Origin: Haloquadratum walsbyi C23
GTDB lineage: Archaea; Halobacteriota; Halobacteria; Halobacteriales; Haloferacaceae
DNA: 6,056 nt
Direction of reading: 5' to 3'
NCBI RefSeq assembly: GCF_000237865.1
Contig: NC_017458.1
Coordinates: 1 to 6,056 of the forward strand
In this document: positions 78 to 5,969 of the stretch, one piece after another
Layout of the letters: each line of letters starts with the position of its first letter
Numbering within the stretch: position 1 is the stretch's first letter
The notes under the pieces: generated by a model
Database searches by the model: none
Told to the model about the DNA's origin: nothing
The model's input: the letters and a program-made list of their open reading frames with translations, nothing else
Made by a program: the position numbers and the translations under genes

Positions 78-380
78 ATGAAACAGCCCTTCGAGGAGGA
101 AGGGCACGCCCCAAGAGGAGCGCACCACCGCTCCTCTTGGACTGAACCGACCTTTGGGACGGGTCTTGGTTCAAGTGCTCTTTCTCTTGCTGATTGTAAG
201 TATCCGTCGGAAAAAGCAAATCAGTCGTATACCAGCCGTATAACGTCAGATTGTACAGATAACGACCGTGTTAGTCGTCTTGCGTCAACTTGCGCAAGGT
301 TGCACCGTACTGTGTCAACTTGCACGGTACTGTGTAAGATTGCACGAGTGAGTGCAAATCTGCGAGGGACGTGCGCATGA
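78..380 (+). CDS. Doubtful small ORF (100 codons); possibly the first gene of the forward module, otherwise non-coding control region
   Basis: For: ATG start, 100 open codons in an otherwise non-coding stretch, and a TGA stop (378..380) that overlaps the ATG of the next gene (377..379) as ATGA, the same junction seen at 1270..1273. Against: the product is basic and rich in Cys/Ser/Thr/Arg, unlike the acidic neighbours. Third-position G+C is about 44% by hand count, whereas neighbouring genes mostly use C/G-ending codons. The ORF also contains a perfect 12-bp hairpin and the phased DNA repeat array. Confidence 0.25.
   Translation: MKQPFEEEGHAPRGAHHRSSWTEPTFGTGLGSSALSLADCKYPSEKANQSYTSRITSDCTDNDRVSRLASTCARLHRTVSTCTVLCKIARVSANLRGTCA
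111..140. repeat. Perfect 12-bp inverted repeat (hairpin/cruciform), 6-nt loop
   Basis: CCAAGAGGAGCG (111..122), loop CACCAC (123..128), CGCTCCTCTTGG (129..140). The two arms are exact reverse complements. Confidence 0.9.
143..173. repeat. Imperfect hairpin immediately following the first
   Basis: TGAACC+GACC (143..152) pairs with GGTC (162..165) and GGTTCA (168..173), with a 2-nt TT bulge (166..167) and a 9-nt loop. Confidence 0.6.
280..369. repeat. Helically phased (10-bp) TTGC(A/G)C repeat array with embedded 20-bp tandem unit and palindromes; candidate operator/iteron set
   Basis: YTG(C/T) begins at 280, 290, 300, 310, 320, 330, 340 and 360. TTGC occurs at 280, 290, 300, 320 and 340. 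The 20-bp unit TTGCACCGTACTGTGTCAAC (300..319) is repeated as TTGCACGGTACTGTGTAAGA (320..339), 16/20 identical. GTCAACTTGC occurs at 284..293 and 314..323. TTGCGCAA (290..297) is a palindrome, and TTGCAC-N6-GTGCAA (340..357) is an inverted repeat. The array ends 8 bp before the ATG at 377. Confidence 0.8.
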
Positions 381-1273
381 GTCGAGAAAGTCCGTCTCGA
401 CGTGCCGAAAAACGTGCCCAGTACCTCACGGCGACGACCGAGTTAGAATATCGCAAGGCACACGCCCTCGCATTTTGTGAGCAAGGCTGTAACGAACGTA
501 CCGTCGCCGAACAAATCGGCTCCACGAAAGGCACCGTCTCAAATTATCTCGATGAGATCGCCGAGCGATACGGTCCCGAGACTGTCGTCTCTGTCGGCGT
601 GGACGAGAAAGAGGACCTCACGCCGGTCGAGGACCAACCGACGAAAGGACCGCTGGAGACCATCGACGCCGGTCGTAAAGTCGTCCTTGAAGGAGAGAGT
701 CGAGGACCGCACACTGTTGAACGATACTTCCGAACATGGGTGCGAGACGGTCGGATTCATCGAGATGCAAAACTCGCACTCTCACTACATGATCACGGCG
801 ACGGGGACACACGAGACCGTCTCAGTAATCTCGAATGGGACGCACACCACTGCACATACAACCCCGATTATACTTTTGTGAGTACCGCCGAGAGTCGCGG
901 CTGTTGGACCTTCGATACTGACCCCGTGACTCTCAATGCCATTCGTGAGGTCGTGCATGTCCCGCCTCTCGATACGACGCCTCTTGTCGCCGAGACTCTC
1001 CCTCGTCGTGAGGACCTCGACCCATTCGAGTGCATTAATCCCGATTGCTCAGTCAACGAGGCACACTCAGGTCTCGACCTTCGTGCCTATCCGAGTCTCA
1101 GTGGTCCGGCGATTGAAATTACTGAGATGACAGACTTCGAGACCGTCTCGCACGTCTGTCTTGAGTGCCGGTCGTTGTTTACACCCGTGCCGGTCGGCGT
1201 GCCTGATCAGAAGAACAACGGCGACGACGAGGACGAGGACGACGATAACGTGCTCGTGGAGGCAATGCAATGA
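377..1273 (+). CDS. DNA-binding protein: N-terminal HTH (sigma-70 region 4 / LuxR / HTH_10-like) plus C-terminal Cys4 zinc-ribbon-like cluster and acidic tail
   Basis: The ORF-track start at 371 is a GTG, and the first ATG is 377 (MSRESPSRR...). The HTH pattern is LTATTELEYRKAHALAFCEQGCNERTVAEQIGSTKGTVSNYLDEIAERY (recognition part approx. nt 491..556). The cysteine cluster is C-x4-C (ECINPDC) then C-x2-C (VCLEC) 36 residues later (nt approx. 1031..1168). The tail is DDEDEDDD. Composition is acidic with C/G-ending codons, and the stop overlaps the next ATG (ATGA at 1270..1273). Confidence 0.85.
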   Translation: MSRESPSRRAEKRAQYLTATTELEYRKAHALAFCEQGCNERTVAEQIGSTKGTVSNYLDEIAERYGPETVVSVGVDEKEDLTPVEDQPTKGPLETIDAGRKVVLEGESRGPHTVERYFRTWVRDGRIHRDAKLALSLHDHGDGDTRDRLSNLEWDAHHCTYNPDYTFVSTAESRGCWTFDTDPVTLNAIREVVHVPPLDTTPLVAETLPRREDLDPFECINPDCSVNEAHSGLDLRAYPSLSGPAIEITEMTDFETVSHVCLECRSLFTPVPVGVPDQKNNGDDEDEDDDNVLVEAMQ

Positions 1274-2979
1274 CCGTCGAGACCGAGACCGAGGACGCCG
1301 ACGAGATACGCCGACTCATCAAGCCGCAAGACCACGAGTTTACCGCGAATTTCAATTATGATAACGGACTCGACGCATGGCTTGCCTGTGACTCGGTAGT
1401 GAAGCAACACGACGGCTCATACGAGACCGAGACCGAGGCTCTCGGCGAAACATGGGACGTTACTCTGTACTATCAAGACTCGTCTATCTTGCCACCTCGT
1501 GACGGCACGACGCCCAACGGCACGAAGATCGAGCACGACCAAATCCGTGAGTTTCGCATCCGTGTCGAGGCTCAGGACGAGCTCGGAGAGAAAAAGGCGA
1601 ACTATCATATCCGTCCCCGCTGGCGTCGTATGCGCGTCGAGACTGACGAGGGAGACCAACACGAGTTATCAATCCCTCGTACTCTTGTGAACGAACACGA
1701 CGCCATGAACGTCCGCGTCTCAGGGTCTAATATTGACTTTTGTGATTATGGCGACCTACTCATGTGTGCCGCAAGCTCTCTCGGCGTGAGTGCTCACCAC
1801 TTCCGCGAGTCATATCGACACGAGACCAGCAATGTTCAGGACGCCGCGAAATACGTGCGTGTCCACGAGGACGTATCTGGTCCCGTCCATGCTCGCACTG
1901 GTCCCTTAGTCTCACTTGCGCACGTATTGGAGAACGACCGTGAGGGCTATCGGAAACTCGTGCAAAACGACACCAACGAGCGAGGGCGTCAGTTAGCCGG
2001 TTATTATCATACCGCCACACTCGGTCCTCAGAGAGTCCGTGAGGTATTCCCTGATCATGCCTTGCCCGTCGAGTGCAAACACTACTACGCTCGCGAGGCG
2101 CACTCTCGACCTGACTCTGACGCTCTGGCTCACCCAAAGGTCGAAGTCGCCTATCAGACAAGCCGGACTGACGACACACTGCATCTTACCGACGAGAATC
2201 TTGCCCAACTCGACGAAGAACTCACCGAATGGCTGTATGCTATCCTCGCCGACGCCGGTCTCGACCTGAGGGCGAATGAGAACGTCTATGTCGAGGACGA
2301 ATATTTCTCAGTCGAGAACGCCACGACGACCGCATCCGTTGTCGACCTCGACCTTACCGAAGTCAGACACGAGCAAGAGTCGGTCGTCTACAAGCATCTT
2401 GCTGACGGCATGGCACCCACTGATCAGGAATGTCTCAATGTGCTCGTCTCCGACGGTGGTGCCGTGAGTCCTCAGGACCTTGCCGAGTCCACAGGACGAC
2501 ACGAAGATACTGTTTACAATTCCCTTGCGAGAATGAACGACCTCGTGACACACACCTACGGCGAGGTCTCATTGAAGTCCACATATACCAGTGAACTTGT
2601 CGCCGACGCACTTGATCAGGCACAACAAGCCGTCGATAACGCCGCTAAAACTGCCGCTGATGCCGTCCACGCCAGTAAACGAGGTCTCGATAATGCCACG
2701 AGTGCCTTTGTTGCATGGTGTGAACGATACGGCGTCAACTACAACGACAACGGCGACGGCATGATCATCGACCTCGGTCGCGTCGATAGTATCAAAGAAG
2801 TGCGTAATATCTTGCGTAGTGGCTTCGACCGCTGGTGCAAGATGAAACGAGACGCTATCACCTTCAAATCTGCAAAAGTCAAATGGGAACACGAGGACGA
2901 CGGCAAAGACCTCAATTACTTGCCGTCCTCTCCTACCGTCCGGTCTCACTCTCAACGAGCGTTTACTCTCCTCAAGTGA
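1270..2979 (+). CDS. Large acidic protein (569 aa) with C-terminal winged-helix-like DNA-binding segment; candidate replication/initiator protein (function inferred only)
   Basis: It is the longest ORF, with an ATG start coupled to the upstream stop and strong C/G third-position bias. The segment ECLNVLVSDGGAVSPQDLAESTGRHEDTVYNSLARMNDLVTHTYGEVSL (nt approx. 2416..2574) has the helix-turn-helix plus wing pattern of MarR/TrmB-type wHTH domains. The N-terminal 370 or so residues have no motif I can name. From memory, the largest forward protein of PL6-family plasmids has homologues in betapleolipoviruses; this was not checked. Confidence 0.9.
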   Translation: MTVETETEDADEIRRLIKPQDHEFTANFNYDNGLDAWLACDSVVKQHDGSYETETEALGETWDVTLYYQDSSILPPRDGTTPNGTKIEHDQIREFRIRVEAQDELGEKKANYHIRPRWRRMRVETDEGDQHELSIPRTLVNEHDAMNVRVSGSNIDFCDYGDLLMCAASSLGVSAHHFRESYRHETSNVQDAAKYVRVHEDVSGPVHARTGPLVSLAHVLENDREGYRKLVQNDTNERGRQLAGYYHTATLGPQRVREVFPDHALPVECKHYYAREAHSRPDSDALAHPKVEVAYQTSRTDDTLHLTDENLAQLDEELTEWLYAILADAGLDLRANENVYVEDEYFSVENATTTASVVDLDLTEVRHEQESVVYKHLADGMAPTDQECLNVLVSDGGAVSPQDLAESTGRHEDTVYNSLARMNDLVTHTYGEVSLKSTYTSELVADALDQAQQAVDNAAKTAADAVHASKRGLDNATSAFVAWCERYGVNYNDNGDGMIIDLGRVDSIKEVRNILRSGFDRWCKMKRDAITFKSAKVKWEHEDDGKDLNYLPSSPTVRSHSQRAFTLLK

Positions 2980-3022: not shown

Positions 3023-3170
3023 CGACCCTCACGCGACATCTGACCGCCTTCGAGGGTCCCCTTTCGTCGTGATCGGTGTGGTGCGCGTCGAGATCGGCGT
3101 CAGTGCTGGTTTGGAATTTGGTGCGACTCACCGGACTCGCTGTTAGGGGTGTGCCTAAGGGCACAACATC

Positions 3171-3670
3171 AAAACACATACCGTAGTTTTGCTCGCGCAA
3201 AAATTTCTACACACAATATCACTCGTGATGTTGTCTCGTTCGGAGCTCCAATTGAGAACGAGACTGCACACTCACAGATTAGACAGATTAGTTGTGCAAC
3301 TACAATATCCTCTGATAAATTCAAGCTCTTGATATTATCATTGTTAAATCTATTCCTGCAACACTTGCTGATACCGTTCAGACCTGTACGCTATCGGAAT
3401 ATATTGCTGATTAATTAAACTCGTTTATATTCTCATTGATAAAAGTAGGGTCACTCGGGAATCCCTGATTTGCGAGTGGTGGATTTTCTAATTTAAATAG
3501 TGTATCTGAGAATAGATCCAAATTTCTCAGACCCTCACGGTTTGTTAGATTCAATGTGAGATTATGAGGAGACTCTCGACGAGAGATATGCCTCTCTCTA
3601 TGTCGGTAACTCAAATCCAGCGTTAATCAGTGTGATTCAGGGTCGGTATATTCAGGATAGATTAACTCTG
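3171..3670. other. AT-rich, ORF-poor convergent intergenic region (candidate origin/DUE, ncRNA locus or insertion hot spot)
   Basis: Hand count gives 194 G+C in 500 bp (about 39%), compared with about 52 to 62% in the two sampled coding stretches. The only ORFs here start at GTG or TTG, lack any internal ATG and are non-acidic. The region contains AT palindromes TTAATTAA (3411..3418) and ATTTAAAT (3491..3498), AGATTA at 3277, 3286, 3559 and 3659, ATTCAGG at 3635 and 3650, and small inverted repeats at 3187..3202, 3505..3531 and 3574..3586. Confidence 0.7.
3274..3291. repeat. Perfect tandem direct repeat, 9 bp x 2 (ACAGATTAG ACAGATTAG)
   Basis: 3274..3282 and 3283..3291 are identical. They are followed directly by TTGTGCAA, which contains GTGCAA, the reverse complement of the TTGCAC half-site of the 280..369 array. 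Confidence 0.9.
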
Positions 3671-5606: not shown

Positions 5607-5969
5607 TTATACCAGATTTATGATGAGTAGCGATATGAGTAAGAATGTGATCACGGCACCACCGGCTATCTGCACTGTTCTGTCCGCTCGGTTAATGTCG
5701 TTGTACTGTCCCCTCAGTGGCTCGTCTTTGAGTATATCTGGCTTCGTGTCAGTCTCCTCAGAGGCGTCGTTATCTAACCGTGAGAGTATCTCATCGAGGT
5801 CATCCTGTATGTTCTCGACGCTTGCCTCGTCGTCGTCAGTATGATCGAGCCCTCGTCGAACTAACCGACGCATTGCTTCCGCCTCAGAGATATTATGCTC
5901 GTCCTGATATTCCTCGACTCGCCTCGCGTCGTCGGCATCGAGTCGTGTCTGATACTGTTGTCTTACCAT
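5607..5969 (-). CDS. Ribbon-helix-helix (CopG/Arc/MetJ-like) DNA-binding protein with acidic linker and C-terminal transmembrane tail anchor
   Basis: The N-terminus VRQQYQTRLDADDARRVEEYQDEHNISEAEAMRRLVRRGL fits a beta-strand, helix, turn, helix RHH pattern (nt approx. 5847..5963). A D/E-rich linker of about 55 aa follows. The extreme C-terminus TVQIAGGAVITFLLISLLIINLV is one hydrophobic helix (nt approx. 5610..5678). It is the first gene of the reverse module. Confidence 0.85.
   Translation of the reverse strand: MVRQQYQTRLDADDARRVEEYQDEHNISEAEAMRRLVRRGLDHTDDDEASVENIQDDLDEILSRLDNDASEETDTKPDILKDEPLRGQYNDINRADRTVQIAGGAVITFLLISLLIINLV

Follow-up and report, generated by a model that had tools for sequence, protein, structure and literature searches.

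A phased array of 20-bp pseudo-palindromic units inside gene F1 of the Haloquadratum plasmid pL6B, a putative operator or copy-control element of the rep operon

Described systems and the pL6B locus

In the plasmids pPS10, R6K, RK2, P1 and F, iterons form sets of three to four direct repeats of ~20 bp that lie next to the rep gene at a spacing of two helical turns. In this work, we analysed a repeat array of similar layout on plasmid pL6B of Haloquadratum walsbyi C23; the window, i.e., the whole stretch of DNA under analysis, is the complete circular plasmid (FR746102, 6056 bp). The array fills the 3' third of the annotated F1 open reading frame (ORF; Hqrw_7000 in the literature) and thus lies inside a coding sequence (CDS), ahead of the genes F2 and F3, the latter encoding a putative replicase with the domain DUF7845. 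As with iterons, the units are homogenised within a plasmid, divergent between plasmids and variable in copy number, and autoregulation or copy control by the replication protein (Rep) is plausible. Unlike iterons, the pL6B array has no AT-rich unwinding element beside it and is placed within a transcribed, frame-conserved ORF. Furthermore, every single unit has pseudo-palindromic symmetry, the array is missing from some related replicons, and the putative DUF7845 initiator carries one MarR-like winged helix and is not of the Rep_3 tandem type; binding and origin activity are both putative here.

Operators of the MarR family are pseudo-palindromes of 16-20 bp for a winged-helix dimer, which the single units resemble, and the F3 winged helix is MarR-like. 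F3, however, is a 569-aa multidomain putative replicase and not a small ligand-sensing repressor, and unlike MarR operators the pL6B sites form a tandem array, with the only promoter proposed so far >200 nt upstream of them. In the crenarchaeal plasmid pRN1, the gene of the small repressor Orf56 stands ahead of, and is co-transcribed with, that of the replicase Orf904; regulatory DNA is found upstream of the operon, and the origin was mapped elsewhere, downstream of the replicase (PMC4234260). Plasmid pL6B shares with pRN1 the archaeal host and a DNA-binding-protein gene that precedes the replicase. In contrast to pRN1, F2 does not track the array, F2-less relatives of pL6 keep it, the pRN1 operator overlaps its promoter, and the proteins are non-homologous. 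Finally, the tap/CopA-CopT system of plasmid R1 and repB/repY of the IncB/IncI-alpha plasmids resemble F1 in that a short, unconstrained ORF, preceded by conserved stem-loops, overlaps with its stop the start of the rep module. Unlike these leaders, the pL6 leader is archaeal and has a DNA repeat array written into it, and antisense transcripts are known only as generic reads.

The pL6-family plasmids are globally abundant in hypersaline brines and share the putative replicase F3 with betapleolipoviruses; for their genes, the literature reports no function, DNA target, origin or control circuit. The size and gene map of the window agree with those published for pL6B, and its F3 is 100% identical to an H. 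walsbyi protein at NCBI. By megablast, the sister plasmids of pL6B at 85-87% identity are LT984489 (locus L002), listed as pBAJ9-6 by Dyall-Smith and Pfeiffer 2024, and LT984491 (pLT53-7; locus L001). The repeats are already in the literature: direct repeats of 16-27 nt were noted in the distal half of F1, with three copies of TTGCACCAACTCGTGCA at nt 277-353 of pCOLO-c1 (Dyall-Smith and Pfeiffer 2024, Supplementary text S1a), and their only interpretation there was that they cause deletions in a protein-coding gene. The pCOLO-c1 repeat matches the unit type of L002, L006 and L184. Neither of the two pL6-family papers mentions iterons or an origin, and the 2024 paper contains no binding-site, operator, half-site architecture or phase independence; the functional reading given here is new.

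Architecture, conservation and level of selection of the array

With moderate confidence, we favour the reading that the array comprises four phased 20-bp pseudo-palindromic sites for a dimeric plasmid protein, most likely the winged helix of F3, and that it would serve as operator or copy-control element of the rep operon. The four units of pL6B follow one another at steps of exactly 20 bp, 37-97 bp from the F2 ATG and ~0.9 kb from F3, upstream of both (Table 1). They have the form TTGCAC-N6-GTGCAA-N2, with the consensus TTGCRY-N6-RYGYAA-N2. A first-pass annotation of the window had described the array by a YTG(C/T) core that recurs at 10-bp intervals over eight of nine helical turns. This is accurate: YTGY starts at 280, 290, 300, 310, 320, 330, 340 and 360, leaving position 350 without one, and the 8/9 occupied positions compare with a maximum of 4 in 500 dinucleotide shuffles. 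The picture of cores on one helix face at 10-bp steps is nevertheless secondary to a 20-bp unit. Self-identity of the array amounts to 60% at lag 20 vs 36% at lag 10, Tandem Repeats Finder reports a period of 20 (2.5 copies, score 67), and the 10-bp phasing arises as a by-product because each 20-bp unit holds two half-sites.

The 16/20 identity between the second and third unit, the short palindrome inside the first and the inverted repeat TTGCAC-N6-GTGCAA (340-357) of the fourth were all recovered. Four TTGCAC/GTGCAA hexamers do fall inside the array, as had been counted; the whole window contains 9 (4 + 5), where about 3 had been expected. TTGCAC in three copies at exact 20-bp spacing occurred in 0/200 shuffles, and the composite pattern TTGCRY-N6-RYGYMA matches the four units only, with 0.07 matches expected by chance. 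Such dyad-symmetric units are of the kind suited to a dimeric regulator, and both F2 and F3 contain helix-turn-helix (HTH) or winged-helix domains.

For comparison, a search with F3, together with an alignment-based scan of metagenome contigs, yielded 80 loci of relatives; further, near-complete plasmids were obtained by way of F3 and F2 homologues. In all close relatives with a contig that extends far enough, the same unit type immediately precedes the gene that follows F1, and the alignment of homologous plasmids, proposed earlier as a check, confirmed that the TTGC core and the 20-bp register are conserved. Copy number varies from 1 to 4. L001 has four units; L002, L006/L007 and L184 have three good units and a degenerate one with the register kept; the F2-less L011 and L084 carry three identical units TTGCACCGTACTGCGCAAGT and a fourth that abuts the F3 ATG; L008 has one to two units, and L083 a single one. 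The gene that the array abuts is F2 in pL6B, L001, L002 and L184, F2b in L006 and L083, and F3 in L011 and L084. Also the tail that follows the pL6B array precedes F3 in plasmids without F2. Among 16 unique units from 7 plasmids, positions 1-4 (TTGC) and G13/G15 are invariant. The left half-site is TTGCAC in 14 of them and TTGCGT in 2, and the right half-site is degenerate (GTGCAA, GTGTAA, GCGCAA, GTGTCA, GTGCAC, GTGCCA, GTGTAC, GGGCAA). The N6 spacer and the last 2 nt are variable; N6 differs between lineages (CGTACT or CAACTC) and is homogenised within a plasmid.

In a held-out test, a position weight matrix (PWM) built from the 16 units was run over 369 kb of other F3 loci. It returned 7 independent sites, 3 of which fall in the 150 nt ahead of F3, where 2.8% of the sequence is located (P = 7e-4). 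These three belong to F2-less plasmids (L024, L027/L028 and L029) with an F3 only ~51% identical to that of pL6B. The L024 site, TTGCCC-GATGTA-GGGCAA, is a perfect palindrome, and the L027/L028 site reads TTGCGC-CATTTG-GTGTAA. By eye, two to three consecutive 20-bp units can be seen in L024, L029 and L032. HRPV-3, HGPV-1, HRPV-11 and Harhisp1 have no comparable site, and betapleolipoviruses with F3 homologues have no TTGCAC-type site. In viral contigs, a scan with the single F3 protein gave no match, and the alignment-based scan found distant pleolipovirus-like contigs only. The exact pattern of three TTGCAC at 20-bp spacing has 46 matches in IMG/VR, in large, apparently unrelated viral contigs. 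Two of our contigs, L083 (11.5 kb) and L027 (8.5-kb locus), exceed one plasmid length, with genes repeating every ~7 kb and ~4.7 kb, respectively; this repetition is assembly read-through of small circles, and the L027-type plasmid hence measures only ~4.7 kb.

The array is not intergenic but part of the published F1 CDS, whose TGA overlaps the F2 ATG at 377. In nine lineages, the F1 frame has a conserved NTG start (ATG, GTG or TTG) and runs stop-free to a TGA that overlaps the next ATG (ATGA), with lengths of 69, 79 and 98-100 codons; the other two frames contain 1-8 stops. Eleven more distant F3 lineages likewise have the ATGA overlap, preceded there by an open frame of 58-114 codons. The overlap is present whichever gene follows, F2, F2b or F3, among others in L001, L002, L006, L083, L084, L087, L017, L018 and L012-L045, which suggests an obligatory termination-reinitiation coupling. 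Because of the conserved frame and its ATGA end, F1 behaves as a leader ORF, the translation of which is probably coupled to that of F2/F3. Right after the F2 start codon, at 381-401 (+), lies an inverted repeat, GTCGAGA-AAGTCCG-TCTCGAC. The first ~11 codons (MSRESPSRRAE) are common to F2 and the otherwise unrelated F2b of L006 and L083, which speaks for an element that acts at the nucleotide level where translation restarts.

The F1 peptide, in contrast to its frame, is largely unconstrained. The ratio of nonsynonymous to synonymous substitution rates (dN/dS) is 0.4-1.0 for whole F1 and 0.74-1.34 in most comparisons of codons 66 to the end (range 0.2-3.0, short stretches), compared with 0.12-0.31 for F2 and F3 in the same pairs. 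Purifying selection at the amino-acid level, named in the first-pass annotation as what would speak against a DNA element, is thus not seen in the array (dN/dS ~1), despite the frame-conserved ORF. Substitutions in the array are evenly spread across codon positions, and third positions account for 26% of them vs 58% in F3 (Fisher p = 0.001, two independent pairs). The cores occur in all three codon phases of F1 (13/6/4 of 23 instances) and encode xA(P/R), LH or xC(T). As the 20-bp period is not a multiple of 3, a peptide repeat is not possible, and F1 differs from protein-coding tandem repeats in both period and amino-acid conservation. By sequence comparison, selection in the array acts on a DNA motif and not on the peptide, because TTGC is invariant across all codon phases, dN/dS is ~1, and the same site type recurs 5' of F3 in distant F2-less plasmids. 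The idea of phased dimer-type sites that act as DNA hence finds support in so far as the core is conserved in all phases, amino-acid constraint is lacking and the position is kept.

A duplication without dedicated function, prone to slippage or recombination in the weakly constrained F1 and kept since it holds the frame open, would account for part of these data, and we consider it rather improbable. The 16-27 nt repeats and deletions reported for distal F1, the variable copy number, the several lineages without an array and a dN/dS of ~1, expected of a neutral stretch too, are all compatible with it. So is the single copy-number change seen between close relatives (L083 vs L006/L184), which comprises 60 bp and is in frame. 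In a neutral stretch, however, TTGC...G.G would not stay invariant in all units, phases and plasmids beside a drifting spacer, nor would the same site type recur at the same place in plasmids with ~51% F3 identity.

Table 1. Features of pL6B discussed in the text (positions in the window)
Feature	Position	Strand	Description
F1 ORF (Hqrw_7000 in the literature)	78-380	+	Annotated CDS, read as leader ORF; array = codons 68-94
F2	377-1273	+	N-terminal HTH and C-terminal CxxC domain; candidate binder
F3	1270-2979	+	DUF7845 putative replicase; MarR-like winged helix at residues ~360-440; preferred candidate binder
R4	5607-5969	-	Ribbon-helix-helix (RHH) fold and transmembrane end
R7, R6, R5, R4		-	Minus-strand genes, published nomenclature
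Three-hairpin structured sense RNA	78-180	+	5' third of F1; compensatory base changes; context, separate from the array
Unit 1	280-299		TTGCGT-CAACTT-GCGCAA-GG; variant half-sites; includes palindrome TTGCGCAA at 290-297
Unit 2	300-319		TTGCAC-CGTACT-GTGTCA-AC
Unit 3	320-339		TTGCAC-GGTACT-GTGTAA-GA
Unit 4	340-359		TTGCAC-GAGTGA-GTGCAA-AT; perfect 6-N6-6 inverted repeat
Conserved tail CTGCGAGGGACGTGCGC	360-376	+	Like a degenerate fifth unit; Shine-Dalgarno-like GAGGG at 364-368, 9-13 nt before the F2 ATG

Candidate binding proteins and the leader RNA

F3 is the sole DNA-binding protein present throughout. In its structure model (pLDDT 80), the DUF7845 N-terminal domain is confident, and residues ~360-440 form a MarR-like winged helix with NadR, BpsR, MepR and MexR as top Foldseek matches (E 6e-3 to 3e-2). 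Pfam assigns DUF7845 only, and with one winged helix F3 is not of the tandem winged-helix Rep_3 type (RepA/pi/TrfA). Dimers of the MarR type bind pseudo-palindromes of 16-20 bp, and F3 as binder fits because this site size matches the 18-bp unit. The N-terminal part, residues 1-350 (window 1270-2320), is beta-rich in the AlphaFold model, where most 10-residue blocks reach pLDDT >=83 with dips to 55-77 near 210-250. This DUF7845 domain has no structural neighbour in the PDB at E <= 0.001, and the fold of the replicase domain appears undescribed.

The first-pass annotation had named the adjacent HTH protein F2 among the possible binders, and an operator for F2, or for its stand-alone N-domain F2a, that autoregulates the F2-F3 operon would parallel Orf56 of pRN1. 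The array abuts the F2 start, the F2 N-terminus is a four-helix HTH, and every plasmid of the canonical clade with F2 or F2a has the array (pL6B, L001, L002, L184, L006, L083 and L008). This co-occurrence is, however, largely explained by physical adjacency alone. The lineage L185/L186-L190 has a full-length F2 (70% identical, with the same recognition helix STKxTVxNYLDEI) and no array, as does the F2-carrying high-GC L191; conversely, the array is kept in the F2-less L011 and L084 with three perfect units and, as a variant site, in L024, L027 and L029. Since both F2-positive array-less and F2-negative array-bearing lineages exist, presence of F2 does not track the array, and we regard F2 as an unlikely binder. 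The F2 structure model (pLDDT 57) is too poor for a useful fold search.

The reverse module offers further DNA-binding proteins. In R4, an RHH fold is combined with a transmembrane end; R6 is an ATPase similar to gp16 of His1 and carries an HTH at its C-terminus. Short repeats in arrays are the typical targets of RHH proteins that bind centromeres. A role of the array as centromere-like or packaging site of membrane-anchored R4 and/or R6, in partition or in mobilisation by a helper spindle-shaped virus, would agree with the proposal in the literature that pL6 plasmids are virus satellites; we rate it as the most improbable of the explanations considered. It is the start of the forward operon, and not the reverse module, that the array goes with. 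R4, also suggested in the first-pass annotation as the divergently encoded binder, is an unlikely candidate, as its N-terminal, DNA-reading strand is QYQTRL in pL6B and the unrelated SVVSAKV in L001, L084 and L083 over essentially the same array. Two unrelated N-terminal RHH types of R4 are found on otherwise similar plasmids (pL6B, L001, L002, L007, L083 and L084), and this suggests an exchangeable specificity for R4-proximal inverted repeats.

Upstream of the array, the F1 leader encodes a structured RNA. A covariance model built from ten sequences matches 17 loci. In the hairpins, 89% of cells pair vs 79% in shuffles, and 11/22 pairs show double changes, which 0/500 shuffles reach; helix 2 has 7/10 compensatory pairs. 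The structure belongs to the sense strand because a G-U conserved in helix 3 (15/16 sequences) fits the sense only. The model has no match in distant lineages or betapleolipoviruses, and an Rfam search of the whole window gave no match at E <= 1. The minus strand has, at 86-105, a hairpin of terminator type that is complementary to leader hairpin H1, with a T-rich run behind it; an antisense RNA over the leader hairpins might well have its 3' end there. F1 is transcribed according to the literature, in which antisense appears as generic reads only.

As an alternative to a DNA site, the repeats may act in the sense RNA: hairpins of the units would slow or gate ribosomes on F1 and tune termination-reinitiation at ATGA. 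The region is transcribed and lies within a frame-conserved ORF that ends in ATGA, the leader 5' part is truly structured RNA, 10/19 units pair fully with G-U allowed, and fold z-scores of the array are -2.0 to -2.8. The predicted folds nevertheless vary between plasmids. Changes in the right half are generally not compensated in the invariant left half, and an A-C mismatch is found in all three identical L084 units. Furthermore, the strict 20-bp register, kept even across the degenerate unit in L002, L006 and L184, is needless for independent hairpins. With no shared array fold and uncompensated changes, recognition of half-sites in double-stranded DNA is favoured over hairpins. The RNA explanation stays alive because unit 1 (TTGCGT/GCGCAA) is a compensated variant of TTGCAC/GTGCAA, and we consider it doubtful to about the same degree as a repeat without function.

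Operator, origin and meaning for the pL6 family

For the F3-binding operator or copy-control element that we favour, the following mechanism is conceivable. The sites would be read as double-stranded DNA; they belong to the transcribed leader that immediately precedes the F2-F3 operon and share their sequence with the 3' third of F1. Each unit would be occupied by a dimer of a plasmid-encoded protein, likeliest via the MarR-like winged-helix domain of the F3 replicase, and adjacent dimers would lie on roughly one side of the helix. Occupancy of the array would then mirror the Rep concentration and act back on rep-operon expression, through a block or a modulation of transcription across the leader; feedback on replication initiation or plasmid pairing is also possible. 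The leader would thus contain an array of Rep-titrating sites that tunes rep-operon expression and/or copy number.

The array had also been put forward as a candidate replication origin. In favour of this, its architecture is iteron-like beside a replication module, it lies where two gene blocks diverge, and helically phased direct repeats of ~17-22 bp near a rep gene, as in iteron origins, are present, in F2-less relatives directly upstream of F3. Iteron origins further have an adjacent AT-rich unwinding element and repeats that are needed across the replicon family. GC is 50% at the array, array-less relatives exist and L083 has one unit, and because of these points the origin role is weakened. 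Given the missing unwinding element, an initiator that is not of the Rep_3 type and dispensability within the family, we do not file the array as a classical iteron origin; to serve as operator or in copy control is the more likely role, compared with that of an essential origin. The GC fraction is 0.50 over 1-450, and the sole strongly AT-rich stretch of pL6B, at 3150-3600 (GC 0.37-0.38), lies between F3 and R7. This stretch is an alternative origin candidate, and the origin of the replicon family may lie in the F3-R7 intergenic region, which the literature describes as the site of the conserved intergenic sequences (CIS) III-V and of accessory-gene insertion. GC skew along pL6B had no interpretable switch. 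Iteron-like arrays unrelated in sequence to TTGCAC occur in other F3 loci: two perfect 21-bp x 3.6 tandem arrays downstream of F3 in L093 (2834-2909, 3010-3085), a perfect 14 bp x 5.3 array downstream of F3 in L026 (4637-4710), whose lineage has one isolated 13-bit TTGCAC-type site elsewhere, a perfect array of 12/25 bp x 4-7 in L041 (523-630), and one of 21 bp x 3.4 in L013 (978-1048).

Several points, the GC-balanced surroundings of the array among them, weigh against an F3-binding operator or copy-control element. The position is unusual for an operator because CIS I, which lies between R4 and F1 and is the sole conserved promoter proposed, is >200 nt upstream of the array. No positionally conserved match to the haloarchaeal promoter consensus SRnnRnnnTTWW was found between leader hairpins and array. 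The partial contigs of L009, L087, L017, L018, L014 and L185 contain no PWM site >=9 bits, and the complete plasmid L093 has only two scattered matches of 9.5-9.7 bits. The F3 recognition helix is RH(E/Q)DTVY in canonical plasmids and RHRDAVY, RHTDAVR, RHIDSVY or RNIDSVY in lineages with variant half-sites, and this co-variation is suggestive of F3 binding while being confounded by phylogeny. Within the close clade, the helix does not separate array-bearing from array-less plasmids: the array-less L009, L087, L017/L018 and L014 keep the pL6B type, and L093 has RHPDSVY. Multi-unit arrays come from only ~5 independent lineages, and L083 is down to a single unit. Furthermore, where arrays of some plasmids differ little from one another, part of the reason could be that the leader segment has recombined, and not selection, as L001 and L084 have nearly identical arrays with F3 proteins that are about two-thirds identical (pN 0.24).

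In the stretches 222-242 and 243-258 (+), two copies of an 11-bp direct repeat CAGYCGTATA(C/A), with a conserved GTATA(A/G)C spot, are followed by CGTCAGATTGTAC. The latter corresponds to the motif GACGGCTGAT(A/T)T, which the distant lineages L185, L014, L017, L024, L025, L029 and L191 have kept in the interval from the leader hairpins to the array or F3, and which could be a TATA-like box on either strand. A sigma-70-type promoter scan, irrelevant to archaea, gave no match.

More tentatively, F1 as a whole may be a composite control region, made up of a coupling leader ORF whose translation would serve only to bring ribosomes to the F2/F3 restart at ATGA, the three-hairpin RNA, possibly as target of an antisense RNA, and the Rep-binding array. 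If so, transcriptional copy control by Rep on DNA and translational copy control would be superimposed on one 300-nt stretch, and F1 would be an archaeal counterpart of R1 tap/CopA or IncB repB, with iterons embedded in the leader peptide gene. F1 is an annotated gene in which signals at the nucleic-acid level dominate over the protein product, a caution for annotation.

The array is the first testable DNA target proposed for the pL6 archaeal replicon family, and its 18-bp pseudo-palindrome at the 5' end of the replication module provides a concrete substrate for binding by F3 or F2. It offers a route to copy-number and incompatibility control, the latter of importance because pL6A and pL6B co-reside in one strain, and may possibly help in building shuttle vectors for Haloquadratum.

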